Shown here piece by piece: positions 308 to 60,570 of a stretch of DNA of 64,000 bases. Within the stretch, counting starts at the first letter, position 1; every line of letters starts with the position of its first letter. Source of the DNA: Schmidtea polychroa (lineage: Eukaryota); the NCBI GenBank assembly GCA_044892525.1, contig CM097885.1, forward strand, positions 27,902,001 to 27,966,000, given 5' to 3'. The notes beneath the pieces are model-generated. The model made no database searches and was not told the origin of the DNA. It saw nothing but the letters and a program-made list of their open reading frames with translations. The translations under genes were made by a program, and so were the position numbers.

Positions 308-3648
<3,341 letters not shown>

Positions 3649-18478: not shown

Positions 18479-22386
<3,908 letters not shown>

Positions 22387-23089: not shown

Positions 23090-23530
23090 GTTCGACGAGA
23101 CAGGCACAAAAGCAAGGCAAAAATCAATAAAAACATTAAATTTAAGTTAATAATTTTAATTACAAAAAAATCAAAAAAATTAAAAATGAATATTTTCCGG
23201 GGTAAACTGCTATGGGCGGATACCGAACATTGAAACGAGTTCAAATATAATAAAAATAAAGTCAATGGGGTCCCTAGAAGGAAAAAATTACAAAACACTA
23301 AACTTAATTAAAAAATTAATTAGCTAATAGAAAAATCAACCTAATGGAAAACCCATGCAATGTGCGAGGACCCAAGTAGTCAATCAAATTAGGTAAAGGC
23401 AATCGGATTAGCGGACGAGTAATTAAATTACGGAAAAATATCAAAAATGATTAAATTGCCAAAACCAATTATGTAGGTAAAAACCCCGGGAAAATTATCC
23501 AAAAGTAATTTGATAAGGAGATAATAAAAT
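23090..23530. repeat. Older dispersed repeat interrupted by giant LTR copy A (resumes after 28934); inverted homolog at ~37990-38500
   Basis: For example AATATTTTCCGGGGTAAACTGCTATGGGCGG (~23190) matches the reverse complement of CCGCCCATACCAGTTTGCCCCAGAAAATATT (~38387). Confidence 0.6.
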
Positions 23531-23924
23531 TGGTGGGTTACAGGTGGTCGAATGATTAAGTGCTGCTACCAGCGTAACCCAACATGCAACATTGTTTTTC
23601 CGCTTGGTACCCGTTGAGTGATCAACGTTGGTAATGTACCAAGGGTTGAGTACCCGCAAAAAGTGAGCGCATCAACGCACTATAATTGTCGAGTACTCCA
23701 CGGGTTCACGGACTACCGTTAGAAGGTTTGTGTCCGATTTCCTCAGGTCCCCTATTCGAAATTGTTTTCCCAACTCTCAACACCTCGATTTTCAGTCACT
23801 CAACGTTTGCAAACAACATACTTCATCCATTAATTTAACTAAATTTGTATTTCGACATTAGCATTAAACAACCAAAGAAAAAACTCAATATATCTAGCAC
23901 AGGTGACTGTTCACATCGCGGGAA

Positions 23925-24313
23925 TTACATTGGTGTAGGTTTTTCTTGTCGCTCATACTCGGCTAACCTAGCCTTCTTTAACTTCTCCCGGATGTTCCGT
24001 CCTAACCGCTTTCTTTTGGGTTTCTCTTTCGCGGCCGGAGGGTATATTGCTGCTAGTTCCACAGTCAACGGCCGGATTTGGCTTATGGCGGCTCCGTGAA
24101 CTACTTGTTCATTTCGCTCGGTTTCTAACGCGCGGAGCTGGAGCTTCAGTTGAAGGACCTGCGCCACCTTCTTTTTCATATCCTCGGGACTAAACCAGGT
24201 GCTTTCTAGTTCCCGGCACCGTCCCTTGAGCTTGTCTACTCGTATGCGGAGCTCCTCGGCCTGTTTTTGGGCTTCTTCCCTGTCCTTTCGCAAATTTTCA
24301 AGTAGTTTGAACA
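23925..24313 (-). CDS. LTR ORF2 exon (copy A): coiled-coil protein with basic NLS-like tail
   Basis: LLENLRKDREEAQKQAEELR..LQLRALETE..IRPLTVELAAIYPP..KPKRKRLGRNIREKLKK. Conserved in B and C; begins at a conserved phase-1 splice acceptor. Confidence 0.7.
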
Positions 24314-24530
24314 CTAGATAAAAATTCAATGATTCATTCTTGCAGCATAACGCTCATCCCATTATATAATAAGATCAATATTATAAATAAACATAGTTTC
24401 AGATATTAAGCACGCAATTCATAAGATAATTTATTGAAAGGAATAAAATAATTCGTCACTAAAATTAAAGTTTAATTAAGTCGTAACTGATGATAATTGC
24501 AAAAAGAAATTTGACGATGAGTCAGGTCGG

Positions 24531-24887
24531 TCACTTGCGAGGCCTTCCCCTCTTCCGCGGGGTTATCTCGGCCTCTTCTAGGTCCTCTACGGTTTTCCCT
24601 TCCTTGTTTGCCCGGATTTGTAAGTCGATTTTCCTCAATCGCATCTGGGCTGCTTCTACCTCGATGGCCGCTCGGTCGCGGGCCTCTTGCAAAAAATCGT
24701 TTGTGGGCTCTGTTTTTACCCACACTGGGGCGTCCGGTTCCGGCCCACTCCTGATTACTGGGCCCCAGTTGTCGAGGTCCAAGCCCCGGTTCCAATCATG
24801 GATACGGTACCATATGTACCGTGTCCGGAGTCGTGTAAGCATCTGTCGGTCGGCTTCTTCGTTACTACCACTGTCAGAATAGGACAT
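24531..24887 (-). CDS. LTR ORF1 (copy A): 118-aa protein with C-terminal AT-hook
   Basis: TRLRTRYIWYRIHDWNRGLDLD, VKTEP (SUMO consensus) and PRKRGRPRK (AT-hook). The ATG sits 2 nt after a TTTGTAG acceptor. Confidence 0.75.
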   Translation of the reverse strand: MSYSDSGSNEEADRQMLTRLRTRYIWYRIHDWNRGLDLDNWGPVIRSGPEPDAPVWVKTEPTNDFLQEARDRAAIEVEAAQMRLRKIDLQIRANKEGKTVEDLEEAEITPRKRGRPRK

Positions 24888-25175
24888 TTCTACAAAAGAA
24901 CAATCAAGCCACTTTATACTGGTTGTAATACGACGTTAAACACAGGATTTTGTTGACCCTTTTTCCCTTTAAGAATTTGAAAATAAAAAGAAATATTTTA
25001 TTTTAAGACTAACATTTATAATCCTAGGAACAATAGAACGAAATTTCATATTTTGTCTACTAATAACCAAAAAAAAAATTTATCCACAATCCTCTTGTTT
25101 TAATTAGCTATTTTTCTCTAAATTTGTATTTATCACTAAGTGATCATTTAAATTATATTTTATGTATTTTAATTT

Positions 25176-25691
25176 AAATATTATAACGAATTAGAAATTT
25201 CAGGGTTTAAATCTTTTGCCACTAAATTCGGGTACGCTGAGGCGACAGGTATTAACAACGAGCTTAGCTTCTCGTCTGCTTGCCTTTCCTTCGGTTGTAC
25301 TCGTCATGAGTGGTATAGTCCGCTTTGATTTGCTTGTAAGTAGTTTAATTTTTTAACCATAGTTTTTCGATTTTAGAGATATTTGGTGGGAATCTTTCAC
25401 TCGGATGGTCATACAGAGTCATATAAAATTCCATTAAGGCTTTGAACAACCGGTCATTCCATCCGAGTGAAAGATTCCCACCAAATATCTCTAAAATCGA
25501 AAAACTATGGTTAAAAAATTAAACTACTTACAAGCAAATCAAAGCGGACTATACCACTCATGACGAGTACAACCGAAGGAAAGGCAAGCAGACGAGAAGC
25601 TAAGCTCGTTGTTAATACCTGTCGCCTCAGCGTACCCGAATTTAGTGGCAAAAGATTTAAACCCTGAAATTTCTAATTCGTTATAATATTT
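25176..25691. repeat. Near-perfect inverted repeat, ~233-bp arms with a 50-bp spacer
   Basis: 25176-25408 is the reverse complement of 25459-25691. Confidence 0.9.
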
Positions 25692-26346
25692 GATTTGTAT
25701 TTAGTGGTGTTAGAAGTTTTGTTGAATAATTTTAATTTAGCCTGTTCTTTGGCTAATCGCTTTTGATTTTTGTAAAATAAATTTTTGTCAGTTATCGATA
25801 ATTCATGCGACTGATTCCGTGTAGTTCCACGGTTGGTATCGACTGTCCCAATGTATTCCTAGTCCTCAATGAATTGATTTAGGTTAATGGAGGTTTTACC
25901 TGACTTTTAATTTCTGGGGCCGCTAAGTTAACTAAGATATATTCGTCACTGATGAGCCTGGGTTAAATTAACTTATTAGATACGTATAGTTACCTACATT
26001 TACACATGTCTATATATGCGCACCTACCCATGTTATTATTGTATTAATAGTCCTAGCATTTTCTCCGAGGGGGGGTTACTAAAAATAGATTTCTGGAATT
26101 ATGGTCATTTTTATTGGAGTAAAGGGGTAGGTTCTAAATTTAGTCGTGGGGGAAATCCTAAATCGATAATTCAATCAAATTTTGATTTTTGGAAATTAAT
26201 AATGAAATAATAGTAATAACAATAATGGTGATAATCATAATGTTGATAAGAATAACACTAGGAAGAATGATCATAGCAATAATTATGATAATAATAAAAA
26301 TGATAATAATAATAATAATAAATAAATCGTAATAATAATAATAATG

Positions 26347-26436
<90 letters not shown>

Positions 26437-28279
26437 CTGATCATACTGGTACTAATAATAATAGTAATAATAATAATAGTACTAATAATAATAATAATAA
26501 TACCAATAATAATAATAATAATAGTAATAGTAGTAATAATAATAATAATAATATAGTAATAATAATAACATTCATAATACTAGGGGTAATGAGAATAATA
26601 GTAATAACGATGGTAATATCAGCAATAATAACAATAATATTAGGGTTGATAATAATAATACTAGTAGTATAGTTTTATATGGTACAATTCGAAGTTTATA
26701 TTTCCCATTTTAGAGGTTCCTATTCTATGATTTAGGAAGTTACTTTTGTAATTTACAAATTTCTGTTTCTAATTTAAAATTTTCTAATTTCCAATTTATA
26801 AATTTATAATTTGTAATTATATATATTATAGTCTGTAATTTAATAATTTATGACTTTATATTTTATATTTTATAATTTTATATTTTACAATTTATAATTT
26901 TATATTTCGTAATTTATAAATTTATATTTTATAATTGCCAATTTTACATTTTATAATTTATAGTTTTTTAATTTTTTTTCAATTCCTAAGTTTATATTCT
27001 ATAAATTCTAATTCTATATTTTATAATTTATAATATTTATGAGTTTGTACTTTGAAATTTTTCGTTTCTATTTCTACAATTTGTCACTTTATTACTTCAC
27101 CACTCGTCATTTCAGAATTCAGGGTTTATAATTTTATATTCGACTCGTGTACTTCTTTACGAGTACCCCTTCTTTATCAACATTGTCTTCCGAAATTGTT
27201 TGCAGCATTCCTTGGTACTATTAGGTTATAATTTCAGAATATTGACGAATATACAGTCTATACATAACTAGTTCTAAGTTAATTGATCCTTATGCTAAAA
27301 TTTATCTACTACTATCCCCATCTAAAATTGGTTATCAAGACTTCTCCATTACCAATTTATAGTTTCAGGGTCGGTATGCTTTATATCTGAAATCTTATAA
27401 TTATCTACAACTTGCATTTTGATTATAATTAGTAAATTTTATAATAAGTACTTATATCTTTATAAATTTTTAAGATGGCGTTTGTAATTTAGTCGGTTAG
27501 ATTTGTAATATCTATAGGTAGACTGAATTTATTCCCATAGTAATTAATCTCGAAGTCCCAACTAGATGAAGTTATACCTACACTTATGCCGGACACTATA
27601 TCAATTCTATTACTTTGAGTTACTATAAATTCCTATTACCAAAATCGGATTCGGCATATGTTTAAGTACAACTGGAATTGCTATTATTGATCAACCGACT
27701 TCATTAAGGTGATTGTAGAATTGTGTAAGATTAGGTATGAGTTCTACTCAGATTAAGACCTTATTGTAGAGATATTTGACATGGATTTTTAATGTTGATT
27801 TTAAATTTGTATTACGTGCAAGGTCGGGAAGAATATTGCTTCCATGGCCCCACTGTGACCACTTCCACAAACCTTAGTGTTAAGTTTTGAGTCAACCATT
27901 TACGGTCGACCTTACATAAATACAAAGAGTCAGGCGGAGGGTTTCCTCGACCTAACTCCATGGCAGGACCATGAAGTAGTTCGACCTCCGAACTGACCCG
28001 AACAAAAAGAGTGTTATAGATAATCATAATGCATGTGTGCATGAGAAATCGAATTTAAAATTATATGCAGGACCGATCAGAGACGTACTCGGACGCCGCT
28101 GATCCGTCGAGAATTACTAAACATAAAATCTTAAAAATATTTTTAATAGATAAAAGGTCGATATTAATATAATTACATAACATAAAATTACAACAAATCA
28201 AAAGGCTTACTAATGATTCTCCAAAAAAATTTTTCAGCAAAATATTGGCATAAAGATTGATTTATGACCGAAACGTGTC

Positions 28280-28325
28280 GGTATATATACCTATTTTGTA
28301 CACGTGTATGTATTGATGCATTAAA
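28280..28325. promoter_or_regulatory. Palindromic TATA-like box plus ATTAAA in the giant LTR (also 61782-61838)
   Basis: GGTATATATACC is identical in copies A and C, followed by GATGCATTAAAACAAA and a T-rich tract. Confidence 0.5.
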
Positions 28326-30506
28326 ACAAACTCGAATTCTTTTTATTCCAGAATTTTCTATTTTACGATTTTGCTATTTTTAATGGCAATTTTTGTGCCA
28401 TAATTTTTGTTTTTATTTTTATATTTTTATTTTTTAATTATTTTTCATTAATTTTACGTCCATGATGGATTTGGAACGGTTCCAGAACATTCTATTTTAC
28501 TTTTAATTTAATTTTTATTCTAACTGATGTTTTATGAATTTCTCTCTAAGATTTATTATTTTTAATACTAATTTATTTATTTTCTCTAACTTTTATGGCT
28601 TTTGTGATGGTCATCGCCATTTTAATGGAATGTTCTGGGTTTTTCTGGAATTTGTTACTGTTTTTTCCATCTTTTAAGTTATTCGAGTTTGCTTTTTGTA
28701 ATTCTATGTTTATTTGGTTATTTTTGAGTTAGATTTTGCATCACTTCTTGCTTTTGTATAATTTTATTTAATTTCTGTGTTTTAGGTTTTTGTTGTTTTT
28801 CCTTTAATTACTATTGTTTATTTGATGTAATTTTAATATTTAACTATACTTTGGGCTTTTTTACTTGCTGTGTACCTACACATTTCAGTCAATTAGTATT
28901 TTGGGTCTAGAAATCAGTTCTAGCCCAACAAAATTACGAGACGGATATAAAAGCGACTGGCAAGTAAGCAGATTCGCCAGCATTTCGAAGTAAAATAAGT
29001 GATAGTATAGCAAAAGGGAGCAAAAGCAAATTTAACATAGTGCTATCCAAATCATTTTGAATCCAGCCTACCAGAAAGAGACATCTCTCGTTGGAATATT
29101 TGTCCCTGTGCAAGATTCAGGTTGGAATTGAAAAGTGTGCAGAGTAAAATGAGTTATTTAAAGTTTTGTAAACGGAGATTGTTTCATTAAAGTGTGTAAT
29201 AAAAGAAAAGTGTAATTGTGATAACTTCGAATAAATATTATTGTGTTTGGTTGTTAGATTCACCTAATATAAGGACACCAAGGAGTCAGATAGTGACACC
29301 GACTTGCGCAAAATAACCAACTAATCTGATTACTCTGATAAAAATTCTTTTCTTTCTCTCGTAATCTCTTTTCTCACTTTAACTCATTGTTCTATCTTTC
29401 TGTCTATGATTGTATAATTTGTTTAATTTGTTGATTACAATGAGCTGAAAATCTGTAGGTAAATTTAATTAACTTGACAGACTGACGTTTAACCTTGTTA
29501 GAAACCCCCAATCGATTTTATATTGTTATATTCGTCATTTCATTTCCCATTCACTCATATTCCTTTCCACCGAATAATATTAATTTTTAAAATTTTTAAT
29601 TAATTTTTTCAGTTTAATTATTAATTTTGAATTTTGTTAAATTATGCTTTCACTATTTTGCATATAGATTTCCCTCAATCCAGTCAACCCCACCAATAAA
29701 AATTTTCAATTCAATTCACTAAATATAAAGTATTTGGATTATGGAAAAGTAATGAATAGACACAGAATTATATGCAAAAAATTAAAATATAAAATTTAAT
29801 CTAAAAGATCTCAAAAAAAATTGATGTTTAAAATTAATTATAAATTATAAAATAATTAAAAATTAATATTTTTGATGGAAACGGTGTGGCAGATACCAAA
29901 AGAAGAGTTGAATTATATTAAATAATAATATTAAATCGGTCATGGGTTCCTATTGAATGATATTTAAGAAATAAAAATAAAAAAATAATAATAAACACAA
30001 ATCAATTTATTAAAAAACAAAATTCTTGATCCTGACAATCATGGTGTCAACCTGTAACACTATTTTATCAGACTTTTTTTGGATCCTCGTGGTTCCTCTA
30101 AAAACCAGCAAAATCAGTATTGAATTAAATGCACAACTTTAAAAAATATCATCACGAGTTATTGAACAATCATCAGTAATTTTACTTCTTATTGTCTTTC
30201 CTCACTCAATAGACAATTTTTCCTCCAAAATTCTTCCTCTCGTTGCCTCCTTTTACTATATATCTTTTTGCAAATTATTTTCACTGTGAATTCTGATTGA
30301 CTTTTATGATGACTTTCAAAAAATGTCAAAATTTCAAAATTTTAACTTAAAAACTAAGCCTGGTGCTATATCAAATATAACTGTCATCACATCAAAGATC
30401 ATTCGATGTGCTATGCATATCATATTGACATTTGGTTCAGATAGCAGTCGACGTGTATAGGGCAAGTGTTCAATTATATTTTAAGTTTATTTAAAATATA
30501 ATATTA

Positions 30507-31512: not shown

Positions 31513-41100
<9,588 letters not shown>

Positions 41101-45861: not shown

Positions 45862-46517
45862 ATAGTTTCTGAAAGTTTCCTTAACTTTCTTTAGTATTAA
45901 AATTTTAATTTAAAATGACCAAATAATTGCTGTTTTTCTTTGAAGAAAAACTAAACAGCTTCGATTGAAATTGAAATTTTAAAGTATCATTATATATTTC
46001 TTTGCAAAGGATTTTTTTGTCTTGTTTTATTTTATACAAACCTAGCAATCATTAAGATCTTATAAATCAGTAGCCTACTAGTGAATGAGACATAAATTGC
46101 ATCTCGTTGACAATAACAAAGTAGGGGGGGGATTGCAGGTAATCAACATTATACCCTTTCGTGCTGTTTCCAGCGCAAGCCAGAATAAAATTACTCGTTA
46201 CCACTCAACACATGCTGAAGGAACAACGTTGCTAATGTGCCGAATGGGGGAATACTTGCGAAAAGTCAGCGCGCTAAGAGCACTATAATTGTCGAGTACT
46301 CTTTGGGTTCACGGACGGCCGTTAGAAGGCATGTGTCCGATTTACTTCGGTCCCTTATCGAAATTACTCTCCCAAACACTCTTATATCAACCACATTGTT
46401 CTCAACAATCACAAGATTCAACCGCATACACATCAGATGGTGGTAATTATTTATTTAGTCATCACAATTTTACAATATATGTTTTACTCCAGGAGGGTTC
46501 GCACACTCAATCACACC

Positions 46518-46956
46518 TCAGGATCGTGGAGCTGCCTCGGACTCTTTCAGCTTTTCCTGTTCGGCCAGCCAGGCCCTTTTAAATTTCTCTCGGGTATTCC
46601 GCCCTAGCCGTTTGCGTTTCGGCTTGCTTGCTTGGGCCGGTGGATATATCTTGGCCAGCTCCACGGGTAATGGGCGAATCTGCGCTTGGAGAGTGTCCTG
46701 AATGAACCTTTCGTTCAGTTTGACCTCGAGCGTGCGCACTTGTAACTTCAGTGCCCGTATTTCCAGTTGATCCTGCTCCGCCTGGGTCTGGAGCTGCAAG
46801 ATGTGTGCTGTTCGTTTCTTCATCTCGACCGGCTGAACCAAGTGCCCTCGAGTTCTCGGCACTTCACTTTGAGTTTCACGACTCGGCCTCGGAGCTCTTC
46901 GGCCTGGGTTTGGGCCTGTTCCCGATCTTTGCGTAGATTTTCAAATATTTTAAACA
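46518..46956 (-). pseudogene. LTR ORF2, copy B (1-bp frameshift near 46832)
   Basis: VFKIFENLRKDREQAQTQAEELR../..EMKKRTAHILQLQ..IRPLPVELAKIYPP..KPKRKRLGRNTREKFKR. Confidence 0.7.
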
Positions 46957-47224
46957 CTAAAACATAAGAAATTTATTTACCGCATCCATACAAAAGAAAA
47001 TTCATTTAATCATGTAACAAAATTATCAATTAGCGTCGGTCGCCTGACCACCAAGGTATACTATAGGTGCTAAAACACATAACTTGACAATAAAATAATT
47101 TATTAAATGAAGTACATAAGAGTAATTGTAGTTAACTAAGTTATCGTACGGGATGCAAAAGAAAACTGTTTAGGACGAGTCAATTATCATTTATCACAAT
47201 ATGAGAGTACGGATCGACGAGGAT

Positions 47225-47590
47225 TCACGTTGGGCACTTGCGGGGCCTTCCTCTCTTCCGTGGGGTTGCTTCGACATCTTCCAACTCCTCCAAGGACACT
47301 CCTTCCCTTTTGGCCCGGAGCTGGAGCTCGATTTTCTTTAGCCGCATCTGGGCAGCCTCCACTTCGATGGCCGCTCGATCAGGGGCCTCCTGTAGTATAT
47401 CGTTCCTGGGTTTCGTTTTCACACACGCCGAGGCGTCAGGTTCTGGGCCACTTCGGATAACTGGGCCGAAGTTATCCAGATCCAACCCGCGGTTCCAATC
47501 ATGAATGCGGTACCAGGTGTACCGGGTACGGAGCCGGGTGATTATCTCCCTGTCGGCTTCGCCATCGCTGTAGTCGTCAGAGTGAGACAT
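47225..47590 (-). CDS. LTR ORF1, copy B (AT-hook protein)
   Basis: TRLRTRYTWYRIHDWNRGLDLDNFGPVIRSGPEPDA..PRKRGRPRK; ATG follows a TTGTAG acceptor. Confidence 0.75.
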   Translation of the reverse strand: MSHSDDYSDGEADREIITRLRTRYTWYRIHDWNRGLDLDNFGPVIRSGPEPDASACVKTKPRNDILQEAPDRAAIEVEAAQMRLKKIELQLRAKREGVSLEELEDVEATPRKRGRPRKCPT

Positions 47591-50500
47591 TTCTACAATA
47601 CAAAAGTCAGAACACTTTACACAGACTGAGATGAGTCTTTAAACACTGGTTTTTGTTAACCCTCCCCCCGACCTACTAACTCACGCTGCCATCGTTTGAC
47701 ACTACGAACTCTAAAATAACCGACGAAAACATTGACGAGCGGACGAAAGCAGGGGTAGTATTATGACATGAAGTTTATGAAATTTATCGAATAAAAGGAT
47801 GATAAGACGTACGGAGACAGGCATCAGTCACGGAGTTCTTCATTCCAACTTTTCATTCTAAATTAACTATTTCTTAGGTTTGTAATTTAGTTGACGAATT
47901 TAATGGAGTAATATAACTAGTGAAATAACTATAACTTAGAATTTCGAATTTAAGTTTTCTTATTTTATCCTTTTAATAAAAAAAAATAATTTCGGTTAAC
48001 CCTAATTATTAATATAATGAATCCTTATCTGATAATGTCCTAAAAATTTTCGAAAGGTCATTTTTGTTTAAAATAACTATTTTAAATTTAATATTTTTAT
48101 TTACCACTAGATGGCAATTTAAAATTTAGCATACTAAATTTTTATAAATTTTTTGAAAATCGGTAAATTACCATTAAATTCGGGTGGTACGTCGGGGCGA
48201 TGGATATTAGTGGCGAACTTAGTTTCTCGTTTGCTTACCCCTCCCTTGGTGGTACTCGTCATGAGTGGTACAATCTCCTTTTACGAGTTTGGAGGTAATT
48301 TATTTATTGTCAATAAATTTTCATTTTTAGGTACGTTACATGAGAAATTTTACTTGAACGGAGATGGATGGTTTTGACCTTACTAATCGTTTCCTTTTGT
48401 GATTCGTGGCGACTTCCCGCTTGCAATTTATTAATAATAAAATTTGGTGATTCCTTGCAACAATACTTTTATATTTTAGGTAAAGTGTACTTTCATAATT
48501 TATTAGTAATTTGTAAAGTTGTTTTATATGTTTCAATAATATGTATTAATTGGTTCTACACTTCCCTGGCAATCTAAGTAAACGTGATTACTCTTTTCAA
48601 GTTTCTTAAAGCGAATGTTATCTGGCTCCTAGTTTCAGGGGGTTGAGATAGCTAAGCTATCCCTTACTGTTAAGCTTGGCCAAATCAAATTATTATATGG
48701 GTATAGCAACTTACATTTACACATATACCTATATGTGTACATCTGCCTATATTCCTAATTAAAATTAGTAGCCCTAACATTTTCTCCTGGGGGTGTTACT
48801 AAAAATATATTTTAGGAATTATGATCATTCTTATTGGAGCAAAGGGGGTTGATGCTAAATTTAGTTGTGGGGGGAAATCCTAAATCGATATTTTGATCCA
48901 ATTTTGATTTTTGGTAGGTACTAATATAACAATAGTAATAATAATAATAATACTGATAATGATAATGACAATAATAATCATGATAATAACAATAAGGATA
49001 ATAATAACAACAACACTAATTATAATAATAATAGTAATAATAATAATAATAATAAATATAATGATAATCATAATATGAATTATATTTAATTTATATGCAT
49101 TTATAATTTATAATTTGACAAAATTTTATGTTCCAAATTCTTGGCATAGGATCGTATGTCTAAATGTAAACTATTATAGCTATTTATACTTATGTTTTTA
49201 TAGTCGTAATTGATTATAGCTAGTTATAATTTATTTTCTACATTTATAATTTATATTTACAACTATTTATAATTATATTTTATAATAAAAATTTATATAT
49301 AACTATTTGTAATTTATAGTTTTATAGTCAAATTTTGTATGCAACTACTTGTAATAAGATTCTATTCCACAATTCGGACATACTAGGCATTTATAAACTA
49401 GATATTTAAGTACAGTAGGAAATCATGATTATAAAATTACATATTCGAGTAAAATATAAAACGATAACCTATAATTCAAGTATCTATAAATTTCATAGTT
49501 AGATTGAGATATTTATACATTATATATAAAATTATGGTTTTTAATTTAGATCTTCCTAACTAATATACTTAAGCAAAGGATATAATTATAGTTTACAGTT
49601 TAGTCATTTGGGAAGTAGATATTAAGTAAAGCATAAAGTCATAAGGTATGATTATATATATTTATAAATTATGATTTTAACTTGGAATTTGATAGTACTC
49701 TACGATTTGACATTGATAGATTATAATTCCAGATTTAAAATTGATTATATTTTAGGATTATATGTTTATGAGCTGTACTTATTCAACTTAATAAAGAATT
49801 ATATGTAATCAAAAATTACATTTTTAACTTGCCAATACTTTATAGATGGTCATTTATCAATGAAAAATAGTTAGAAATTATACTACCTCAACTTGATGAC
49901 CAGAGTACATTTATCTACAACCGTTTTAGATTTATAATTGATATTTTGGAAATTAATGTGGATTCACAATTTGTAAAACTATTTTAGGGTGAAAATTTAG
50001 CTCGATATAGGTTCATGATTTATATTTGGAGGAGGTTAAATTTATGATATATATATATATATATATATACAGATTAGATTTATTAGTCATATAATTAATT
50101 CAATGGCCACTCAATTTATAGATTAAGTCCTACCTATACGTATGCCGAATATCTTTATGAGTATAATTTCAGTTACTTCAATCACAAAGAAAATTTTGCT
50201 TTACATTGTTACAGAAATCTACATTCGGCAAACGTATAAGTATGACTGAAATTTTTAATGATGTTCAACCGACTACATTACTAAATTGTCAGATTGTGTT
50301 AAGTTTGGGTCTGAGATCTACTCAAATTATGACCTTAGTGTGAAGCTATTGTAGAGAATTTTGAATGATGATTTTAACTATGTATTGCACATAAAATTGG
50401 GAAGAGCGTTTGCTTTCGCGGCCCCACTGTGACCACTAAGACAAGCCTTACTGTTGTGTTGGGTCGAAACCTACCGTGGTCGACCGATGATAAATAATTA

Positions 50501-50934
50501 AAGTCATAACGGAGGAATTTTATCGACACAACTCCAAGGCAGAACCATTGAAGTGGACGACCTCCGATGACCGAACAAAAAAAACTATAATATAGATAGT
50601 GCGTGTCTGCATGTGAAATGACTATAGTTATTTAAAATGTGGTTGAGGTAAATTTTATGAATGATCGAATGTAGGACTGATCAGAGACGTAGGTGTATCA
50701 ATACGCCGCTGATCATTCGTACATAAGATAAAAACACCAAATAAACAATATTAATTAAGAGAAACATGACTGAAAATAAAAACAGTGAAATTAAATAAAA
50801 TCCAACAAATGCAAGAAGTATTGCAAGAAAATCAACTCAAACATAACAGAGAAACATAAAAATATAAAAACAGACTTGAATAAAGTTAAAAGATAGTAGA
50901 AATGCTAAATTATATAAAAAACTTTACCGTTACT

Positions 50935-51711
50935 GAATAATTTTACCGTTCATTTTATATGGTTCACCTTCACAATCGCCATTTGCTTTCATAACTCCCT
51001 TTACAATTATTGTTTCTCGTATTCTATGGTTCAATTTTGCCTTTAAACGAATTTCTGGACTTATTTTTAATTCTCCTGTTTGAAATGCTGCTAGACAGTT
51101 TCTGGAAGCACCTCGACTGGCCTAGGTATCGCATGCATTTTTATGAGTGACGTATGGCTTCATTTACCACAATAGAATACAAATGTTGTATGTTTGACAA
51201 TACACTCTCTCACTTGAGTTCATCGCAAATCAGACTCTTGATACAGACAGTATTTTACGTCATTTTCTATTTTTAAACTGCTCGGATACGCACCTGGACA
51301 TTCCAACATATCTACTACCGAATAAAGTTTTCCCATTTCAATTTGGGAACAATCGTACGTAACTAAAGATGATGTCTGTGTAATTATTGCACAATACGTA
51401 ATCATCATAAACATCGCCCATGGAAATATCATAGTTTTTCTTAGTTCTGGCCTAACTCTTTCATTTACTCGTCTTTGTGGTGGACTCATTTCTTGCTTCT
51501 CATTTTTCTTTTCTGTTAGCGATGAACACAGTGTTTTCCAACCACCTTTTTCGTTTAACAAGCTTATTAAATATTCGTTTACTAGACGGGCAGCGATGTC
51601 TATCAAATTTTCTAATTTGTCTGACCTTGCGAACGTATGCGTTCCAATTTCTAAAACAACATAAGTTAAAGCTATTATTATAACTTCCTTATTAATTTCA
51701 TTTTTTGTCAA
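50935..51711 (-). pseudogene. Bcl-2-like domain fused to a chuvirus/BEL-type envelope glycoprotein N-terminus
   Basis: BH2-like LLNEKGGWKTL, a hydrophobic signal-like segment, then LVTYDC..YSVVDMLECP..LYQ. Past two stops and one frameshift it continues ECIVK..FYCGK*SHTS..CLAAFQTG..KG..NGDCEG..Y, a cysteine pattern typical of that glycoprotein class. Confidence 0.7.
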
Positions 51712-51779
<68 letters not shown>

Positions 51780-52066
51780 AGTAAAATATTTTTTACGGAT
51801 GTCTAACATTAAAATAATATAAACAATTTCGGATGCAATTTTTTTTACGGATGCGCTTGTAAACAGTTTCTGTGTATAGACGGTGTCTCTAGAGGCGAAT
51901 ATAGTTTTTCATACGCCATGTTTACAAGTTTGCAGATATTTTTTTCTGTGATTTAGCTAATTTGCAAGTGATGTGATTTCCAGTGTAACAGGGAAAGCAT
52001 GCAATAGAGTTTAATCAGCAATATTGTATACTTACCTGGCGCGAAGAGAAATCTTCGCGTCTCCTG

Positions 52067-52110: not shown

Positions 52111-52145
52111 GGGATTTGCACTAGGTATCACAAAGCTGGTAATGT

Positions 52146-52228
<83 letters not shown>

Positions 52229-52634
52229 TATTTTTAGTAATTTTTATTATTATCTATGTATTATTATTATTATAACTATTGGTGGGTTACAGGTGGTCAG
52301 ACATCTTACCCTTTCGTGCTGTTTCCAGCGTAACCCAGAATACAAGGTTGATTCTGCCAAATGACACTTGATGAGCGATCATCATTGGTAATGTGTCAAC
52401 TGGGTGAGTCCTCGCAAAAAGTGAGCGCACTACTTGCACTATAATTGTCGAGTATTCTTTGGGTCCATGGACTATCGATAGAAGATTTGTGTCCGATTTC
52501 ATTGGTCCCTTGCCTCTATTGTTTTCCCAAAAACCCACTCCTCATCACTCAACTTCATCATTCAACACGCGAGATTTCAACATCAAAAGTTTGCAATTTT
52601 ATTTTACCATCAATTTGGTTCTGTCCATCAACCA

Positions 52635-53068
52635 TCAAGTGGTTTTAACTTTAACTGCTTCTGATTCCAGCCCTTCTTCGGCTAGCAGCAGGCGTTTAAT
52701 TCGCTCACGACCATCTCGGCCTAACCGCTTTCGTTTGGCTTTGGGCTTGGGTGGATGCATTTCGGCCCATTCGGTAGCCATAGGTCGGATGGCTGCCGTG
52801 ACATGTTCGTCAATAGTCTGTTGATTCAATTTGGTCTCCATGGCTCGCATCTGTAGTTTCAGGGCTCGTATCTCGGTTTTGTCTTGGGCGCTCTGGAGCT
52901 GCAGATGCTCAATCTGCTTCAAGTATTTATGCGCCACTTCGGAGAGAAACCAAGTTTGTTCCATGTTCCGGCAACGTTCTTTGAACTTGTTGACACTGGA
53001 CCCGAGTCGCTCGACCTGCTGGTGCGCCTGCTCCCTGTCTTTCCGGAGACCTTCGAATAGCTTATACT
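52635..53068 (-). CDS. LTR ORF2 exon, copy C
   Basis: YKLFEGLRKDREQAHQQVERL..EIRALKLQMRAMETKLN..IRPMATEWAEMHPPKPKAKRKRLGRDGRERIKR, open from the TTTTAG acceptor. Confidence 0.7.
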
Positions 53069-53242
53069 CTAAAACGAAACTATCATTAAATGACTTTTAC
53101 CATATATTGTTTCGCTATTGTTTGTAGGCGTCTCTGAGATAAAAACTTTTATATCCATATCCGAGATACTAAGCACCATATGGGAGCGGTTTAACCTTAG
53201 GGTTCAACTGTAAGAATATAATTTTAAAACAAAGTCATTTAT

Positions 53243-53695
53243 TTAATAATACAGCAGTCGGAGTTCATCAAAATCACTATAATCAACGGAGTATAAGCCC
53301 AAGTCCACTGAGATAGTCGGGGTTTTAGCTTCAGGGGGCCTTCTTGCGGGGTCGGTCCCATTTTTCTCGGGCTTCGGCTCAACTTCCGACTCTTCAATGG
53401 GTCGGCCGGCTTTGACGGCACGGAAATGAGCCTCAATCAAGCGGAGCTCATATTGCGCTCTGGTGATGGCACCCATGGTACGATCTCGGGCCTCTACGAG
53501 CCAATTGTTATCCGGCTCGGTCTTCACCCACGCCGGGGCCCTAGCCTCGGGGCCTTTCCGGATTACTCGATTCGAGCAGTCCAGGTCCCGACCCTGGCTC
53601 CATCGATGGATGTGGTGCCAGATAAGTCTGGAGTGGAGGCGCGTAGTCGTCGCGTCGCATCGGTCTTCCTCACTCTGCTCACTGGAATTCGACAT
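53243..53695 (-). CDS. LTR ORF1, copy C (AT-hook region shifted out of frame)
   Basis: TRLHSRLIWHHIHRWSQGRDLD..VIRKGPE..WVKTEPDNNWLVEARDR. The DRPRKK remnant lies in another frame. Confidence 0.65.
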   Translation of the reverse strand: MSNSSEQSEEDRCDATTTRLHSRLIWHHIHRWSQGRDLDCSNRVIRKGPEARAPAWVKTEPDNNWLVEARDRTMGAITRAQYELRLIEAHFRAVKAGRPIEESEVEPKPEKNGTDPARRPPEAKTPTISVDLGLYSVDYSDFDELRLLYY

Positions 53696-54325
53696 TCTAA
53701 ATTTTTATTAGAGATTACGGTTCTTTTAATTAATATATCACGTTGATTTCCATTTTCGCTCATTATATTCTCATTATTAGTTTTCTTTTCTTTCTACTTA
53801 AAGGGGTTCAGTTATGAAGAACTTTTAAATCGTAAATAATTTTAAAGGGAACATAATGTAACTGTATTACAATTGTATGGTACATAAATATTGACGACAA
53901 ATCAATGATGGAATGCGTATTTTGTAAACAAAGCCTACCGAAATTAAAATACCAAAGCTTAGTTAAATTGAGAATTTAAATCATAAAGTAAATGGTATGC
54001 TAAAATGGTGATAAATATAGAAGAAAGATCATTAAATAATAACTGAAGTCCTTGGTTTTCGAAAAACAAATCTATCGAATTAAAATTATGTACGTTTTAA
54101 AATTTTTAATTTTGTCTGTTTTTGAGTGGAAAAATATTTTTTGATAAAACATTAAAAAGTTTTTTCGAAAATTACTGTTGTTTCCCATCCGTTTTCTTCC
54201 TCCTTATAAGTGACTATTGTTGCACGTGTCGGAAAACAATTAATCGGTGAGAAAGATTTTCTTGTCTTTGATGACTCAATAAATTTTTATTCAAGTAGGA
54301 GAAGAGAAATTATTTTTACCCAATA

Positions 54326-55208
54326 CACCAAACACCACTGAGATACATTCTCTATAGTGGTGGTTGGCGTGTAAAGCAATTCACTCACTGTATTTACCGA
54401 TTGGCTATATTTACCAATTAATCATCATCAATTTGAATATGAATTTGATGTTTTTTGGAAATTTATTTTAGCCATTTTAGAAATGGCTTTCAGGTAAGAT
54501 ATTTAATTTTAAGTAAAGTTTAAGTCTTGAATTTTGATCCATATAGATATGAGATCATTATTCAAGTTCTTAAATATTACTTTTAATCAACAATATAATT
54601 ATAAATTATTTTTAATTAATTTTCAGGCTTTTTAGGAATTTTATGTCTTTTACTAAAGTATTTTGGAATTATTTCGAAAAAATGTGAGTCCAATATATTT
54701 TTAATTATAATTAATTAAATAAATCAATCAATGTATTTTTTTAAAACATTTTGGGAAAAATCGCTGATTAGAATAATTTTTTTAATTTTTGTAATTTTTT
54801 TTCTGAGCTCAATATGAGGGGATTCTTAAAGGAAATCAAATCTGGAGTAAAAAGATTTTGAACCAAATTCATCTGCTCTTGATATTTTCATTAAAAATAT
54901 AATTTAAAAAATTTTCAACGATCTTTTTTTTCTAAAAATTGTCTAAAATAGAATTATTATAGAAACGTATCTCATCGTTACAATTTTACGAATCAAAAGT
55001 TTGTATGTATTTTTTATTATGTGTTGTGCTTGTGTGCATTTTTTAATTTTCCTTCCACTTTTCAGATTTCTATAATATAAGATGTATCTCATTGAGCTAT
55101 AAATGAGAACATCAACCTGAAATCAAAGTAAGTATGTATGTTTCTATAATGTAAGATTATTGATTTTTTTGTTATATTATAGGAAATGCATCTCAGTGGT
55201 GTTTGGTG
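54326..55208. mobile_element. TA-flanked MITE, copy 1
   Basis: TIRs CACCAAACACCACTGAGAT / ATCTCAGTGGTGTTTGGTG with TA on both sides. Confidence 0.8.
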
Positions 55209-55257
55209 TAATTTTGCGACAAAGGATTCCAAATTTAGAAAATTGTTTCCTCATGTA

Positions 55258-56156
55258 CACCAAACCCCACTGAGATACGTTCTCTATAGTGGTGGTTTGC
55301 GTGTAGAGCGATTGCTCACTCACCAATTTACTGATGTTGATGATAAATTGTTGTTTAGCAAAGTTGTCAGTAATTTGTTTTACGTATGTTTTACATCATG
55401 AAATTTATTTTAGCCATTTTAGAAATGGTTTTCAGGTAAGATATTAAATTTAAAGTAAATTTTAAGACTTGAATTTTGATCCATATGGATATGAGATCAT
55501 TATTCAAGTTCTTAAATATTACTTTTAATCAACAATATAATTATAAATTATTTTTAATTAATTTTCAGGCATTTTTTAGGAATTTTATGTCTTTTATTAA
55601 AGTATTTTGGAATTATTTCGAAAAAATGTGAGTCCGATATATTTTTAATTATAATTAATTAAATAAATAAATCAATCAATGTATTTTTTTAAAACATTTT
55701 GGGAAAAATCGCTGATTAGAATAATTTTTTTAATTTTTGTAATTTTTTTTCTGAGCTCAATATGAGGGGATTCTTAAAGGAAATCAAATCTGGTGTAAAA
55801 AGATTTTGAACCAAATTCATCTGCTCTTGATATTTTCATTAAAAATATCATTTAAAAAATTTTCAACGATCTTTTTTTTCTAAAAATTGTCTAAAATAGA
55901 ATTATTATAGAAACGTATCTCATCGTTACAATTTTACGAATCAAAAGTTTGTATGTGTTTTTTATTATGGTTTGTGCTTGTGTGCATATTTTAATTTTCC
56001 TTCCACTTTTCAGATTTCTATAATATAAGATGTATCTCATTAAGCTATAAATGAGAACATCAACGTGAAATCAAAGTAAGTATGTATGTTTCTATAATGT
56101 AAGATTATTGATTTTTTTGTTATATTATAGGAAATGCATCTCAGTGGTGTTTGGTG
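55258..56156. mobile_element. TA-flanked MITE, copy 2 (near-identical to copy 1)
   Basis: Same TIRs and interior; starts 49 bp after copy 1 ends. Confidence 0.8.
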
Positions 56157-58135
56157 TATTGATGTTATCGTTCGTTGTTTAATGCATTTTGATTAATTCA
56201 AATTCTCAATTCTAATATTCAATTTGTTTTTAAACTTTTGTCAAGTTTGGTATTATGGACTCCAATCAACCGAATTCATCAGAGAATCACTCGACAATCG
56301 GATCTTTTAACGGCACATTTAGATCTACCGATTACACTCCTATGTTGAAACAGGAATTCATAAATCGAGATGGAAATTATATATTTCATGATTCCAGGAA
56401 AAATACAATCCTTTAAAAAAATCTTCTACTATTTGCAATGTATATTCATGTGTATTTTGCCCTTTTACACTTTGCTGCTCACTCTATAGATGCGTGATCT
56501 TCCTTAAGTTATGCAGGTAATCGAATCGGCGATAACAGAAGCTGTGCAAAAAGAAATTCATGCAGTTCAAAGTTAGCCTTTTCAGTGATCGTAATAGGAT
56601 TTCCTTTATTAATTGGAATATGTAACATAATGGAATTTTGTGGTTAGCGTAGATATATATTTGCAATTGACTTTATGAACGCTTTGGAAGCTCATTCTCA
56701 GGTTTAACGGTAAATAAATAAAAGTCTAGTGATTTTTGTATTAATAAATTTTTGTTACAGTTAATAACTGGTGCGTACAAATTTCTTAATGCAATTGCGT
56801 TTATCATCAAATCATTACAGCGGTAGTTCCAGTTAACCGATGGGTTTAATTTTTGAGCATTACTGATATTTTCACATTTTATTTTAATACCAATAATTTG
56901 TGGGTGTACACTTGAAGTAACCAAAATTAATGAGATTGTAAGTTATTGAATTAGATTTCTATGAGTTCATTTTTATGGTTTATTTTTAGCTTTTATACTT
57001 ATAAATTTACGAGTATTACATGTAGAAATAGTAGGTCCATTAATAACCATTTAGGTTCTAGGTTTAAGTTTACAAGTAGTAACTAAATAAATAATGCATT
57101 CATCGTAAGGAGTATATATATAAATAATACGTTTATTAATAATGATAGCCGATTTATAGGTTTATAAGTAGTATATATAAGTGATATTAATACGAATATT
57201 GGTATATGGAATTTTATGGGGCTTAATTTATAAAATCAATGTTATGAGCAATATATATATATATATATATATACAGATATATCAGTAGTCTATCTGGGAG
57301 TAAAGTTGGATAGATATATAATTTGAAGGGGGTCATTTAGGAAATTTGCACTCTATAGTTGTAACTATGATATAAATGGAGTATATATTAAGCTAATCTA
57401 GTATACTTGGTTAATGGCTAATGACTATGATTTTAAGGGGGTTCATTCATAAAAATTTACAATTTAACATTTTTTAAATATAGCATAAGATAAATATATA
57501 TTAAAATAGGCTAACTTAGAATATTTAGGTTGTAGTTGATGACTATATGATTTATGGGGGGAAGGTTTATAGAATATTTACACCTTATTATGAGATTATA
57601 TTTTTTCCGCTAAAGTAGTTTAGATTTTTACTGTTATGACCAAATTAAGCTTATAATTTATACTCTTACAGCTAATACAAGTTTATAATTTAAAATTTTA
57701 TGAAATTAAATTTATAGTTTATAATTTTAAAACTAATATAATTTTATAATTTATATTTTTATGAAGTTAAGTTAAATTTATAGTTCATATTTAAGGCTAA
57801 TATAATTTTATAATTTATATTTTTATGAAGTTAAGATTATAATTTATAGTCAATATAAATTTATATTTTTAGGAAGTTAAATTTATAATTTACACTTTTA
57901 TAACTAATTATAATTTATATCTTTATGCGATTAGGATTATAATTTATACTTTTATAATTAACTTAGATTTATAATTTTTAGTCAATATAAATTTGTAATT
58001 TATATACTTTTTTACAAATTTAAATTTATAATTTGTACCTTTATAGTTATGGAAAGTTGTTTGTTTTAATAATATTGGATTTAGCTTTTTCTGGAAAATA
58101 TATTTTAATTGCATTATTATTGATTTATTGATTTT

Positions 58136-59383
58136 ATGAATTTAGAAGTTGAAGACATCATAACTGGCGACCACGCCAAGGAAATCAATGCGATAGGAAA
58201 AAAGAAAGGAACTAAGAATATGTTAGATTCCTTGTCAAAACAAGCACGTGAGATGCTAAATTTTAATGTAAGAAAGTTTGACGGAAAAGTTGGATCTGAA
58301 GCCGAACTTTGGCTAAAGGATATTATGGAATGGCTGAGAATAGAAGGTCAAAGTCTAGTAGACGCATTGGATCTTTTGTTGGCAAATGCGGCATCGATGT
58401 TATGGGAAGCGGCGAAAATAGCGAAGGTGACCGATGAAATGGCAAAAGAGTGGTTTATAGAAACTTTTACAGTAAGGAAAACCATTACTAACAAGATTGC
58501 GGAACTAGCTCAAATTCAGCAAGAGAGAGATGAAAGATTCCAAGTCTTCGAAATACGAGTAAGAAGTTTAGTTAAAAGTGTATTTAGCTCTGGAATGTCT
58601 GATGAACAGATTGTTCGAGACATTATTTCAAACAGAGTGAAAGACGATAGAGTAAAAGAAATATTCTTATCAGGGAAAGTGACAAGTTTTGAAGATGCCA
58701 GGGATATGGCAAAAATTCAGGAGAAGATCGAGATGACGAATGACAATAAATTCAATATTGATGCCATAAGAAGAGACTCTTACGCATCAGTGATGAAAAA
58801 TGGTAAATTCGAGGGTAGACGAAACCAAAGAACAATTGTGAAGACAACTGCACATCAACGCGACGAACAACGAGAGATTAATCATGAGAGGAATAGACCT
58901 GGTAATGGTCGGTTTGTACCAATTGTAAATGAAGACAAGAATGAAAATGAGCGGTATAGAGGACGATATGAGACAGGAGAACCAGAGAGAAGAATACCTA
59001 CAGTATCGCTTAAAGATATTGCAAGAAGGTTATTTAATGACAGCAAGGGAAGAGATTCGCGTCATCCAGTGAAACTGACACCAGGTCAGTGTTTTTGTTG
59101 TGGAGAAAAAGGGCACCGGCGTTTTGAATGTCCTATGAAAGACAAATGTCTAATCTGTGGAAAAGAAGGTCATGGATTCAGAGATTGTTTTTTGGTTAAA
59201 AATAGAAATGGATATCAGAAGAGAGTGGCATGTATTTACGAAGAAGATCACGAAAGAAATAATGGTGATTTCACAGAAGATTTATACAGTAATTACGAAG
59301 AAACGATAAAAAAATCAATGGATAAACTAAAAAACAAGGACGATCCAATTGCTTTCATTTCGTCAGTGGGGTCGACACAATAA
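58136..59383 (+). CDS. gag: Gag with two CCHC zinc knuckles
   Basis: KFDG..AELWL, CFCCGEKGHRRFEC and CLICGKEGHGFRDC. The true start is probably downstream of the LTR. Confidence 0.88.
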   Translation: MNLEVEDIITGDHAKEINAIGKKKGTKNMLDSLSKQAREMLNFNVRKFDGKVGSEAELWLKDIMEWLRIEGQSLVDALDLLLANAASMLWEAAKIAKVTDEMAKEWFIETFTVRKTITNKIAELAQIQQERDERFQVFEIRVRSLVKSVFSSGMSDEQIVRDIISNRVKDDRVKEIFLSGKVTSFEDARDMAKIQEKIEMTNDNKFNIDAIRRDSYASVMKNGKFEGRRNQRTIVKTTAHQRDEQREINHERNRPGNGRFVPIVNEDKNENERYRGRYETGEPERRIPTVSLKDIARRLFNDSKGRDSRHPVKLTPGQCFCCGEKGHRRFECPMKDKCLICGKEGHGFRDCFLVKNRNGYQKRVACIYEEDHERNNGDFTEDLYSNYEETIKKSMDKLKNKDDPIAFISSVGSTQ

Positions 59384-60570
59384 TCAGTAGAAAGAAGCGA
59401 AATGAAGACATGATGCAGAAGATGTATGAGACGACAGACAGAAGAAAGTGGAGTAAGATTGTAATAAACATGACGGCGATTGACATGCTTTGGGACTCTG
59501 GAGCGTCAGTATCTGTTATGAGTGAAAAAAGTTGGACAAAGATCGGGAAACCGAGGTTGAAGCAGAGCACAATTTCTCTTTGTGGACTATTTTCGACGGG
59601 AATGGAAAGACCGTTAGGAGCAATGACGATAGAAGCTGATTGGAATGGGAAAAAAAGAATTATTAATGTTATAGTTGTCAAAGATATACGTCCAGATTTC
59701 ATTGGGGTGTAGATACAATGGAGAGATTTGGTATTCAACTGGTAGAGGTAGACAATATTGAAGCGTCACAAGTAGGGTTGACATATGTGGACTCAGAACG
59801 AGTAGAGAAAGCATTATTAATGCTTGGAGACAGGAAGAATGAACAGTTAGACATATTGCTACGGAAGTTCAAAGGTATTTTTATGGCTTCAACTTTTGAT
59901 CTCGGGTTTACGAAAGTTGTTCAACATGAAATGAATATAGTAGGTGGGCCTGTAATGTTACAGCCAAGAAGACAACCAATGCATTTAGAACAAAAGCTTG
60001 ACGAACTTGTCACGAACTTATTAGAAGCGAGAGTTATTAGAAAATGCAAAAGTGCATGGAACGCGCCACTAGTGATTGTGGCTAAGAAATATGGATCAAT
60101 AAGGATGTGTGTCGACTATAGAGGGTTGAATGCGATCACTGAAAAGATATATTTTCCAATGCCAGATACACGATTTCTACTGGATTGTCTGGCAGATTCA
60201 AAATATTTCACATTCATCGATCTAGGTCAAGCATATTATCAAGTTGGAATGGCGAAGGAAATTCAAGAGGTCACGGCTTTCAGTACAAGAAAGTACATTT
60301 GAGATACATAGATTGGTAAGAGAGAACAGTGAGAAAGCAGCTAAACGAATGAAAGAGATGGAAACAGAGAAGAGAACGAATCGATGTTTCACGGTGGGGG
60401 AGAAAGTATTAGTTCGGAAAGAACCACAAAATCGCGACAAAGATGGACTACAGTATGAAGGTCCTTTTGTCATATCAAAGTTTTTGTCAGAACACCAGGT
60501 GGAATTGAGTAACGGGACGACAAAGAAACTCAGACGAATTGAATGGCTTAAGAGATGGGCAGTTCCTTAA
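59329..60570 (+). pseudogene. pol: Truncated pol (protease, partial RT, integrase tail)
   Basis: The -1 frame is open from the slippery site to the protease. There is a 1-bp loss near 59705 and a large deletion near 60295 removing YxDD, RNase H and the integrase core. Confidence 0.85.

Follow-up and report, generated by a model that had tools for sequence, protein, structure and literature searches.

The 64,000-nucleotide stretch of Schmidtea polychroa DNA analysed here (the window; positions count from its first letter) contains three long related units, A, B and C, each with two ORFs, called ORF-U and ORF-D, on the same strand. What kind of element do they belong to, and why are protein-coding segments kept inside it? 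A sequence-only reading had proposed solo LTRs of a giant retroelement, each LTR being an expression cassette that disperses its own accessory genes. The ends of two units agree with this proposal. Unit A (23531..28930, minus strand; 5,400 bp, its 5′ end in element sense at 28930) and unit C (52280..62451, minus strand; 5,682 bp once two nested inserts are subtracted) were again found to have TG...CA termini, 7-bp imperfect inverted termini and 4-bp target-site duplications (TSDs), AAAT for A (23527..23530 and again at 28931-28934) and CTAT for C (52276-52279 and 62452-62455). Element and both ORFs are oriented on the minus strand, and in the flanks checked beside A and C neither a primer site nor an interior junction was found.

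A, B and C are collinear as separate blocks of 67-80% identity, so the description of three collinear units stands for all of them, but B lacks a TG end and a TSD and is a damaged LTR remnant (46122..50902, minus strand), in which most of the 5′ ~700 nt is missing and a ~170-nt piece is inverted (50729-50902). The broken polyprotein fragment that adjoins it (50930..51715, minus strand; Bcl-2-like/env junction) comes from a different, abundant Burro-type family. Nested in C are an abundant element with terminal inverted repeats, in two copies of ~0.9 kb each (54321..56161), and a small plus-strand gypsy element (58045..60693) with ~120-bp LTRs, gag, protease and a truncated reverse transcriptase (RT). 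The statement that the units hold no gag or pol of their own needs one qualification: C does hold gag-pol, though from the nested small gypsy element.

The nature of the units is settled by the same LTR elsewhere in the genome, where it occurs as direct pairs around gag-env-pol, 30-37 kb apart with interiors of ~25 kb, as had been predicted. A same-strand partner at 28-34 kb accompanies 104 of 150 ORF-U matches and an opposite-strand partner none of the 150; the median pair spacing is 30.0 kb, and one locus has an interior of 25.3 kb and a total length of 36.3 kb. In one interior, analysed in separate pieces, the domains on the strand of the ORFs comprise zf-CCHC, MATH, viral fusion protein, protease, RT, RNase H, integrase, ankyrin, TRAF and BIR+RING, with the order PR-RT-RH-IN as in Ty3/gypsy. 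The polyprotein spans 4,773 codons from stop to stop by coordinates, its frames agreeing across the pieces, and env lies in frame between gag and pol, the fusion-protein domain (E 4.8e-68) preceding the protease. Before env lies a possible BCL2-like motif, for which all 30 PDB matches are Bcl-xL, the best at an E of only 0.89.

In six of six pairs a primer site begins 7 nt past the 5′ LTR end, complementary to 21 nt of the 3′ end of host tRNA-Pro(TGG) including CCA, and 4-bp TSDs flank 10 of 10 other unpaired LTRs and five of six pairs. The polypurine tract anticipated alongside the primer site was not seen: all six pairs have a constant motif before the 3′ LTR that is not purine-rich. Its absence does not outweigh the evidence from RT, integrase, primer site and TSDs. 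Short inverted termini and TSDs would also suit non-autonomous DNA transposons, and the units might otherwise be independent gene duplicates; both ideas are almost certainly wrong, being excluded by the direct pairs that flank the primer site and retroelement polyprotein. We conclude that A and C are each a single LTR left by a giant gypsy element of Burro type. Such a solo LTR is produced when the paired LTRs of one element recombine with each other, according to the available text of PMC11998498.

In architecture the parent agrees with the published Burro, which makes the element itself a known one. Shared with Burro/GYPSM1, as far as the text of PMC6431247 describes it, are an interior of ~25 kb, a total of >30 kb, a single huge polyprotein, gag zinc knuckles, MATH, in-frame env, PR-RT-RH-IN, ankyrin, and BIR and RING accessory ORFs. 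We leave the family number unassigned because the polyprotein has 4,773 codons here against 4,873 aa in Burro1, and the likeness is judged by architecture. In contrast to our LTRs, none of the ORFs named in that text (figure aside) is placed within the LTR (PMC6431247), and our literature search, of incomplete coverage, found no published description of ORFs inside a Burro LTR.

What, then, are the two ORFs? ORF-U, typically of 118-123 aa, is 118 aa long in A (24531..24887, minus strand), where its Met start directly follows an AG, with the acceptor at 24889, and its C-terminus carries an AT-hook-like RGRP motif. It is open and retains RGRP in B (47225..47590, minus strand; 121 aa), and in C (53243..53695, minus strand; 150 aa) a late frame change has removed the AT-hook-like end. 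Across copies, the RGRP core is found in 15 of 18, an acceptor AG before the ORF in 17 of 18, and an AATAAA 72-126 nt past the stop in 11 of 12. The C-terminal RGRP core with basic flanks resembles HMGA-type AT-hook proteins, but ORF-U has a single motif, scoring 11.4 and 15 bits against a Pfam cut-off of 17.4 (AT_hook, PF02178), and the remainder matches nothing. Its structure model is weak (pLDDT 66, pTM 0.31); viral and PDB fold libraries gave no match at E<=0.001 (best Z 4.8), and it had no neighbours in the Atlas.

ORF-D reads as an exon and not as the free-standing ORF it had been taken for, because in 18 of 18 copies the first 30 codons lack a Met and in 17 of 18 an AG, a conserved splice acceptor, directly precedes its start. 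The exon of A (23925..24313, minus strand) accordingly has no start codon but a phase-1 acceptor at 24313, and encodes a coiled coil and a basic motif in 14 codons fewer than its sisters; that of B (46518..46956, minus strand) has a frame break near 46830; and that of C (52635..53068, minus strand) is open over 143 codons, with an altered base immediately after the acceptor. The earlier statement that all units keep two ORFs is right as to presence in A, B and C, but not all are intact: ORF-D of A, B and C and ORF-U of C, four of the six, are damaged or altered. The ORF-D structure model consists of long helices, and its Atlas neighbours are generic coiled coils only. The accessory protein HBZ of HTLV-1 is likewise small, helical, basic and tied to an LTR, but it is antisense; an analogy with it fails here, since both ORFs are sense to gag-pol.

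A 249-aa homologue of ORF-D lies within the LTR of a distant lineage. Neither it nor ORF-U nor ORF-D found a homologue in a protein collection searched at near lengths, no relatives of the two ORFs were found outside this genome, and a PDB sequence search gave no real match. The sole match of a profile search of 1.84 billion proteins was rejected, because this repetitive protein of 2,384 aa owed its score to the sum over six repeats.

Both ORFs are under purifying selection across subfamilies, to judge from their codon pattern, as the sequence-only reading had supposed. Between copies dN/dS is mostly 0.06-0.3 (A-B 0.08; A-C 0.25 and 0.14) and for 17 of 18 ORF-U pairs and 16 of 18 ORF-D pairs it is below 1 at P<0.05, although the pairs lack independence, several show saturation and two between close copies are non-significant. 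The spacers had been described as strongly diverged between A and C, and they are at chance level: identity is 54.3% in the U-D gap and 53.1% in the upstream 400 nt, against 53.6% in a shuffled control. A very improbable alternative is that the ORFs are untranslated and that RNA or DNA elements and a raised GC account for their conservation; the GC of the ORFs is indeed 51-55% against 32% for the LTR, and neither a homologue nor a known fold was found. Against it, 45-75% of residues are kept in spite of saturated synonymous sites, the positions of start, acceptor and stop are conserved, and a codon pattern of this kind is absent from two conserved non-coding blocks.

Outside the ORFs, LTR A has an A-rich 5′ block, a candidate U3 (28240..28930, minus strand; A-C identity 80%), and a terminal conserved block (23531..23775, minus strand; A-C identity 76%) with a motif common to two distant lineages; the conserved 5′ blocks have stop codons in every frame. 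A perfect 233-bp inverted duplication (25176..25691), missing from most sister copies, and a (TAA)n array with an AT-rich minisatellite (26197..27040) also lie within A.

Taken together, the evidence is very probably best explained by solo Burro-type LTRs with two selected coding segments in their last 1.4 kb, sense to gag-pol, and we infer that both segments are probably 3′ exons of spliced accessory mRNAs. The start of ORF-D would be supplied by an upstream exon or by the junction. Within the LTR no splice donor for ORF-D was found that fits all subfamilies. A conserved non-coding block of A (25210..25313, minus strand), a candidate donor or second promoter, holds a 5′ splice-site-like sequence with GC in A and GT in three other lineages sampled. 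We rejected this block as a coding upstream exon because several copies have lost its ATG, one lineage carries a stop in it, and no frame has a synonymous excess. When contigs of four sequencing runs (three presumed RNA) were placed on a 3.9 kb sister 5′ LTR with its leader, no acceptor joint was seen among the matches listed; one of these runs left two bins upstream of ORF-U with zero cover, which, coming from contigs of a single study, is neutral evidence.

Where transcription starts decides what a solo LTR could express. In A a candidate U3/R/U5 junction (28319..28347, minus strand) combines an AATAAA (28347-28342) with a match to the published planarian Initiator 17 nt downstream (28330-28319). 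This match reaches 13.5 of 14.6 bits; A, C (61832..61843, minus strand) and lineage L066 have it in identical form, and in each it is the top sense match, although the motif is AT-rich and antisense matches reach 12.5-13.1 bits in the same LTRs; five of the nine matches of at least 13 bits in the window lie outside LTRs. AATAAA is common in such AT-rich DNA. Downstream of the candidate junction lies a conserved RNA hairpin of ~70 nt (A, 27929..27998; B, 50503..50572; C, 61408..61477; all minus strand), in which A, B and C differ by compensatory changes. Folded without constraints, five of five sequences have the same long hairpin as their optimum, with z from -3.7 to -4.2 and the sense strand folding better than the antisense in three of three. 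It was not recovered by RNAalifold on a MAFFT alignment because that alignment was out of register, and no Rfam match for the LTR was found.

On this motif evidence, it is plausible that the ORFs lie downstream of the LTR promoter, making the LTR an expression cassette as first proposed. Under the preferred layout, U3 would span ~600 nt, the poly(A) signal would sit just upstream of the cap site, R would be very short, and a U5 of 3.7-4.8 kb would contain hairpin, introns and ORFs, such that a solo LTR would have the full set of cis parts. With a U5 of 4-5 kb, strong-stop DNA would be unusually long.

The other possibility, which we regard as doubtful, is that U3 holds the ORFs, as in the case of MMTV sag or HIV nef, with the promoter in the terminal ~250 nt; only the 3′ LTR of a full element would then express them, through splicing from leader or interior donors, and solo LTRs could not do so. 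The available text of PMC12789967 documents this arrangement for LTR-borne ORFs, and it would fit an ORF-D that has no start and no universal donor in the LTR, as well as a terminal block that is conserved in all lineages sampled. It is opposed by the top Initiator match and invariant AATAAA ~600 nt from the 5′ end, by the poly(A) signal after ORF-U in nearly every copy, and by a CCAAT and TATA pair ~1.07 kb before the LTR end in lineage L107, whose position suggests that long R/U5 regions occur in this group.

The ORF products may regulate the element itself, a suggestion we make tentatively. ORF-U would bind AT-rich LTR DNA through its predicted AT-hook, as an activator or anti-silencer, and ORF-D would form a dimer and serve as a nuclear or RNA-binding partner, perhaps for the hairpin. 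It is through the replicating elements that selection works, and the solo copies decay. In its fullest and rather speculative form, the Burro-type LTR could be a self-contained transcription unit, its U3 ~600 nt long, its R tiny and its U5 of 4-5 kb carrying hairpin, introns and two spliced regulators, an AT-hook protein and a basic coiled-coil protein, in a Tat/Rev-like circuit; each of the solo LTRs, which number hundreds to thousands, would be a potential source of the regulators in trans.

Do solo LTRs then spread working genes, as had been claimed? As DNA they do, but the solo copies in the window accumulate damage and the selection signal lies between replicating subfamilies; with four of six ORF copies damaged or altered, solo copies look like passengers. 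The contrary view, that solo LTRs are themselves selected and that ORF-U and ORF-D act in trans to benefit host or element, as helpers or dominant-negative restriction factors, appears unlikely. In its favour, all cis parts may be present, loose first-look counts give 2,723 candidate places for ORF-U and 6,664 for the distant ORF-D homologue, and private changes in close copies (29 of 30 loci for ORF-U, 27 for ORF-D) have a dN/dS of 0.30, a value biased by the choice of copies by protein score and by private changes that include unsampled lineages. Besides the damage in the window, piRNAs repress Burro (available text of PMC10558129 and PMC8532177), which also speaks against it. The ORFs may be dispensable, since in one copy of the most abundant lineage the final 1.95 kb contains no such ORF.

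Among known systems, MMTV sag and rem exon 2 and HIV-1 nef share an LTR accessory ORF that is reached by splicing, occurs at each end of the element and persists in solo LTRs, and in MMTV, too, the poly(A) signal precedes the cap site, by ~20 nt (available text of PMC12789967 and PMC11998498). Their ORFs lie in the U3 of retroviral LTRs of ~1.3 kb or shorter, whereas here two unrelated ORFs occupy the 3′ part, possibly U5, of a gypsy-type LTR of 4.3-5.7 kb. Of six MMTV solo LTRs, none was scored with a sag ORF among three table rows (PMC12789967, PMC11998498). Ogre, Grande, Retand and RIRE2 likewise have conserved lineage-specific extra ORFs of obscure origin, and Ogre LTRs reach 6.5 kb, but these ORFs lie in the internal region, outside the LTR (available text of PMC7264820 and PMC6431247).

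Burro elements are abundant in planarian genomes and are targets of piRNA silencing (PMC10558129, PMC8532177, in part), and one Burro is reported, second-hand, to support stem cells and regeneration (PMC13465017, in part). If the U5 location is true, the layout would be unlike the LTR-borne genes found in the literature, all of which are in U3; solo LTRs would be more than promoters alone, and reverse transcription would need to handle multi-kilobase strong-stop DNA without a purine tract. Selected LTR genes add to Burro biology two unannotated proteins, both of which repeat masking conceals.

The sequence-only reading took three units in the window for solo LTRs of a giant retroelement, and for two of them, A (23531-28930) and C (52280-62451), the TG...CA termini and 4-bp target site duplications (TSDs; AAAT for A, CTAT for C) were confirmed. 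A genome search with A, in which 31 of 9,317 candidate places were scored, returned several direct pairs at 30-37 kb spacing. Among the best 150 of 2,723 candidate matches to ORF-U, the upstream of two coding segments within the LTR, 104 are paired with a copy on the same strand 28.3-33.6 kb away and none with a copy on the opposite strand. TSDs were reproducible at other loci, being perfect over 4 bp at all ten unpaired LTRs checked (nine different 4-mers; chance per site 0.0075) and in five of six LTR pairs. A primer site complementary to a host tRNA-Pro(TGG) lies 7 nt past the 5′ LTR in each of the six pairs. The expectation of paired copies with gag-pol and both priming sites was borne out except for the polypurine tract, which is absent before the 3′ LTR in all six. 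Neither a primer-site nor an interior junction adjoins A or C, so both are solo LTRs, an identity well supported by these comparisons, and the minus strand is the element sense.

In place of the polypurine tract, the interior side of the 3′ LTR carries a constant GC-rich motif (comparison loci L002, L009, L011, L089, L093, L096, L100 and L104). By eye the motif shows partial complementarity to the primer-binding site, a possible sign of end-to-end pairing or of an unusual way of priming the plus strand. The 7-nt distance between LTR end and primer site recurs in all lineages seen (L014, L066, L107, L108), the usual distance being a shorter 2-3 nt. Genes for tRNA-Pro(TGG) form a tandem array of 475-bp period (L109; contig C1 from ∼130.90 Mb onward), and their pattern has 2,186 matches genome-wide. 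Elements of the group are also nested in one another (L095-L098 on contig C3, ∼81.43-81.47 Mb; C1, ∼138.15-138.22 Mb), one of them within the terminal block of another LTR.

One parental interior was read, as five separate pieces. Its minus-strand polyprotein, spanning 4,773 codons by coordinates, holds zinc knuckles, MATH, a viral fusion domain, protease, RT, RNase H, integrase and ankyrin repeats, and is followed by TRAF, BIR and RING ORFs; the LTRs of this element are 98.9-99.5% identical over two main aligned blocks. This architecture matches that of Burro, the giant gypsy-type retroelements of planarians, as outlined in a review (PMC6431247), and the assignment of the genome to planarians rests on that match. 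At L066 a 160-aa RING-finger ORF (2701-3180, minus strand; E 3.4e-12) lies between primer site and gag, in a leader of ∼3.5 kb.

The description of three collinear units with diverged spacers also held. After masking, A, B (46122-50902) and C align as separate blocks of 67-80% identity (A versus C, 80% in the 5′ block and 76% in the terminal block), and two A-C spacers are 54% and 53% identical, the same as a shuffled control (54%), in a window of 29% GC from a 781-Mb genome. C is long because two insertions are nested in it, a ∼0.9-kb inverted-repeat element present in double and a small gypsy element; with both removed it measures 5,682 bp. B has neither a TG end nor a TSD and is a remnant; the broken polyprotein fragment adjoining it matches an abundant family at 97% identity, and the family of A at only ∼30% in protein. 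Elsewhere in the window are an uninterrupted protein kinase ORF of 282 codons (32025-32873, plus strand; Pkinase E 3e-28), broken ORFs that by eye resemble a hAT-type transposase (34935-37401, minus strand; a Pfam scan of one piece gave no match), and an 807-codon open frame directly before B (43438-45861, plus strand) with nothing significant in Pfam. Arrays of 21/33/54-bp repeats in opposite orientations (308-800 and 2549-3648) could represent the two termini of a foldback-like element, and an inverted pair of 240-bp repeats (18956-19193 and 51905-52146) is 82% identical.

ORF-U and its downstream neighbour ORF-D occupy the final 1.4 kb of the LTR, in the sense of gag-pol, and are a real feature. 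In 17 of 18 copies the start Met of ORF-U falls 1-2 nt behind an AG, and an RGRP motif ends the ORF in 15 of 18, the three misses being frame-disrupted copies; the Pfam AT-hook model scores under its cut-off. ORF-D has no Met among its first 30 codons in any of 18 copies and begins behind an AG in a single phase in 17 of 18 (a count excluding B); its predicted structure runs from long helices through a basic motif to a last helix. Sequence, profile, language-model and fold searches found no relatives beyond this genome.

Selection on the two proteins, as first proposed, is well supported by Nei-Gojobori comparisons, which left out copies whose frames were short and broken (two for ORF-U, three for ORF-D). 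dN/dS was below 1 at P<0.05 in 17 of 18 ORF-U and 16 of 18 ORF-D pairs, the pairs being non-independent and several saturated; unsaturated examples gave 0.09-0.31 and 0.07-0.13, respectively, and the three non-significant pairs (0.39, 0.00 and 0.79) are very close copies. The claim that all three units keep both ORFs stood only in part: both are traceable throughout, but the window's own copies are decaying, with a frame break in ORF-D of B, the tail of ORF-U lost in C, an altered base after the ORF-D acceptor of C and 14 codons missing from ORF-D of A. Private changes in close copies, a biased sample, gave dN/dS of 0.30. Selection on the solo copies themselves may be at work, but their damage argues against it.

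The primer-site pattern revealed more than one LTR-end type in the genome, and two others were sampled, one copy each. L108 carries a 249-aa ORF (571-1317, plus strand) that has a Met of its own, preceded by a strong acceptor, and both ORF-D motifs; it matches ORF-D by profile (E 1.4e-9 within that locus) and hhalign (probability 83%). Internal stops are absent from 136 of its best 150 matches; among the top 70, 34 have a partner 26-29 kb away, the LTR spacing of this lineage being ∼26 kb. No ORF-D-like ORF occurs in the final 1.95 kb of L107, which represents the most abundant type. Together, these two copies suggest that LTR-borne ORFs are old in the group, perhaps not universal. L107 also shows CCAAT and TATA motifs ∼1.07 kb before the LTR end, with splice-like signals and no long ORF (800-1120).

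In 11 of 12 copies an AATAAA follows the ORF-U stop by 72-126 nt; with the acceptors, this fits alternative terminal exons, which ORF-U and ORF-D probably are. The published planarian Initiator matrix (PMC10558129) has its highest-scoring sense match, 13.5 of 14.6 bits, at LTR position 601-615 in A, C and L066. The match sits within a block that hardly varies, and an AATAAA precedes it by 17 nt; MMTV is arranged similarly, its poly(A) signal preceding the cap site by ∼20 nt (PMC12789967). A ∼70-nt hairpin ∼330 nt downstream of the match is the unconstrained optimum in five of five sequences, with compensatory changes visible among A, B and C, and in A a further non-coding block, also conserved and bearing a donor-like motif, precedes ORF-U by ∼400 nt. 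We somewhat favour a layout in which the ORFs lie downstream of an LTR promoter, where a U5 of 4-5 kb would hold them. Counting against it are the AT-richness of the motif, its strong antisense matches, the location of five of the nine top window matches outside LTRs, the lack of an ORF-D donor fitting all subfamilies and the extreme length of such a U5. Placement in U3, like the LTR-borne sag gene of MMTV, seems less likely. Both LTRs of the nested small gypsy element also carry one of the top-scoring Initiator matches (window 58060 and 60596), in each case 15 nt in from the 5′ end.

Neither Burro with its giant LTRs nor the presence of ORFs in retroviral LTRs is new. No description of ORFs inside Burro LTRs was found in the article listings and abstract openings searched; there is some chance, well short of even, that papers on these elements or Repbase already show them. 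A self-contained LTR cassette is a testable hypothesis. The AT-hook-like ORF-U product, encoded beside long AT-rich tracts, might activate the LTR or counter its silencing. That of ORF-D, which combines a coiled coil and a basic motif and whose unit also has a conserved hairpin, might handle RNA. These associations tentatively suggest that the two proteins might be self-regulators of the element.
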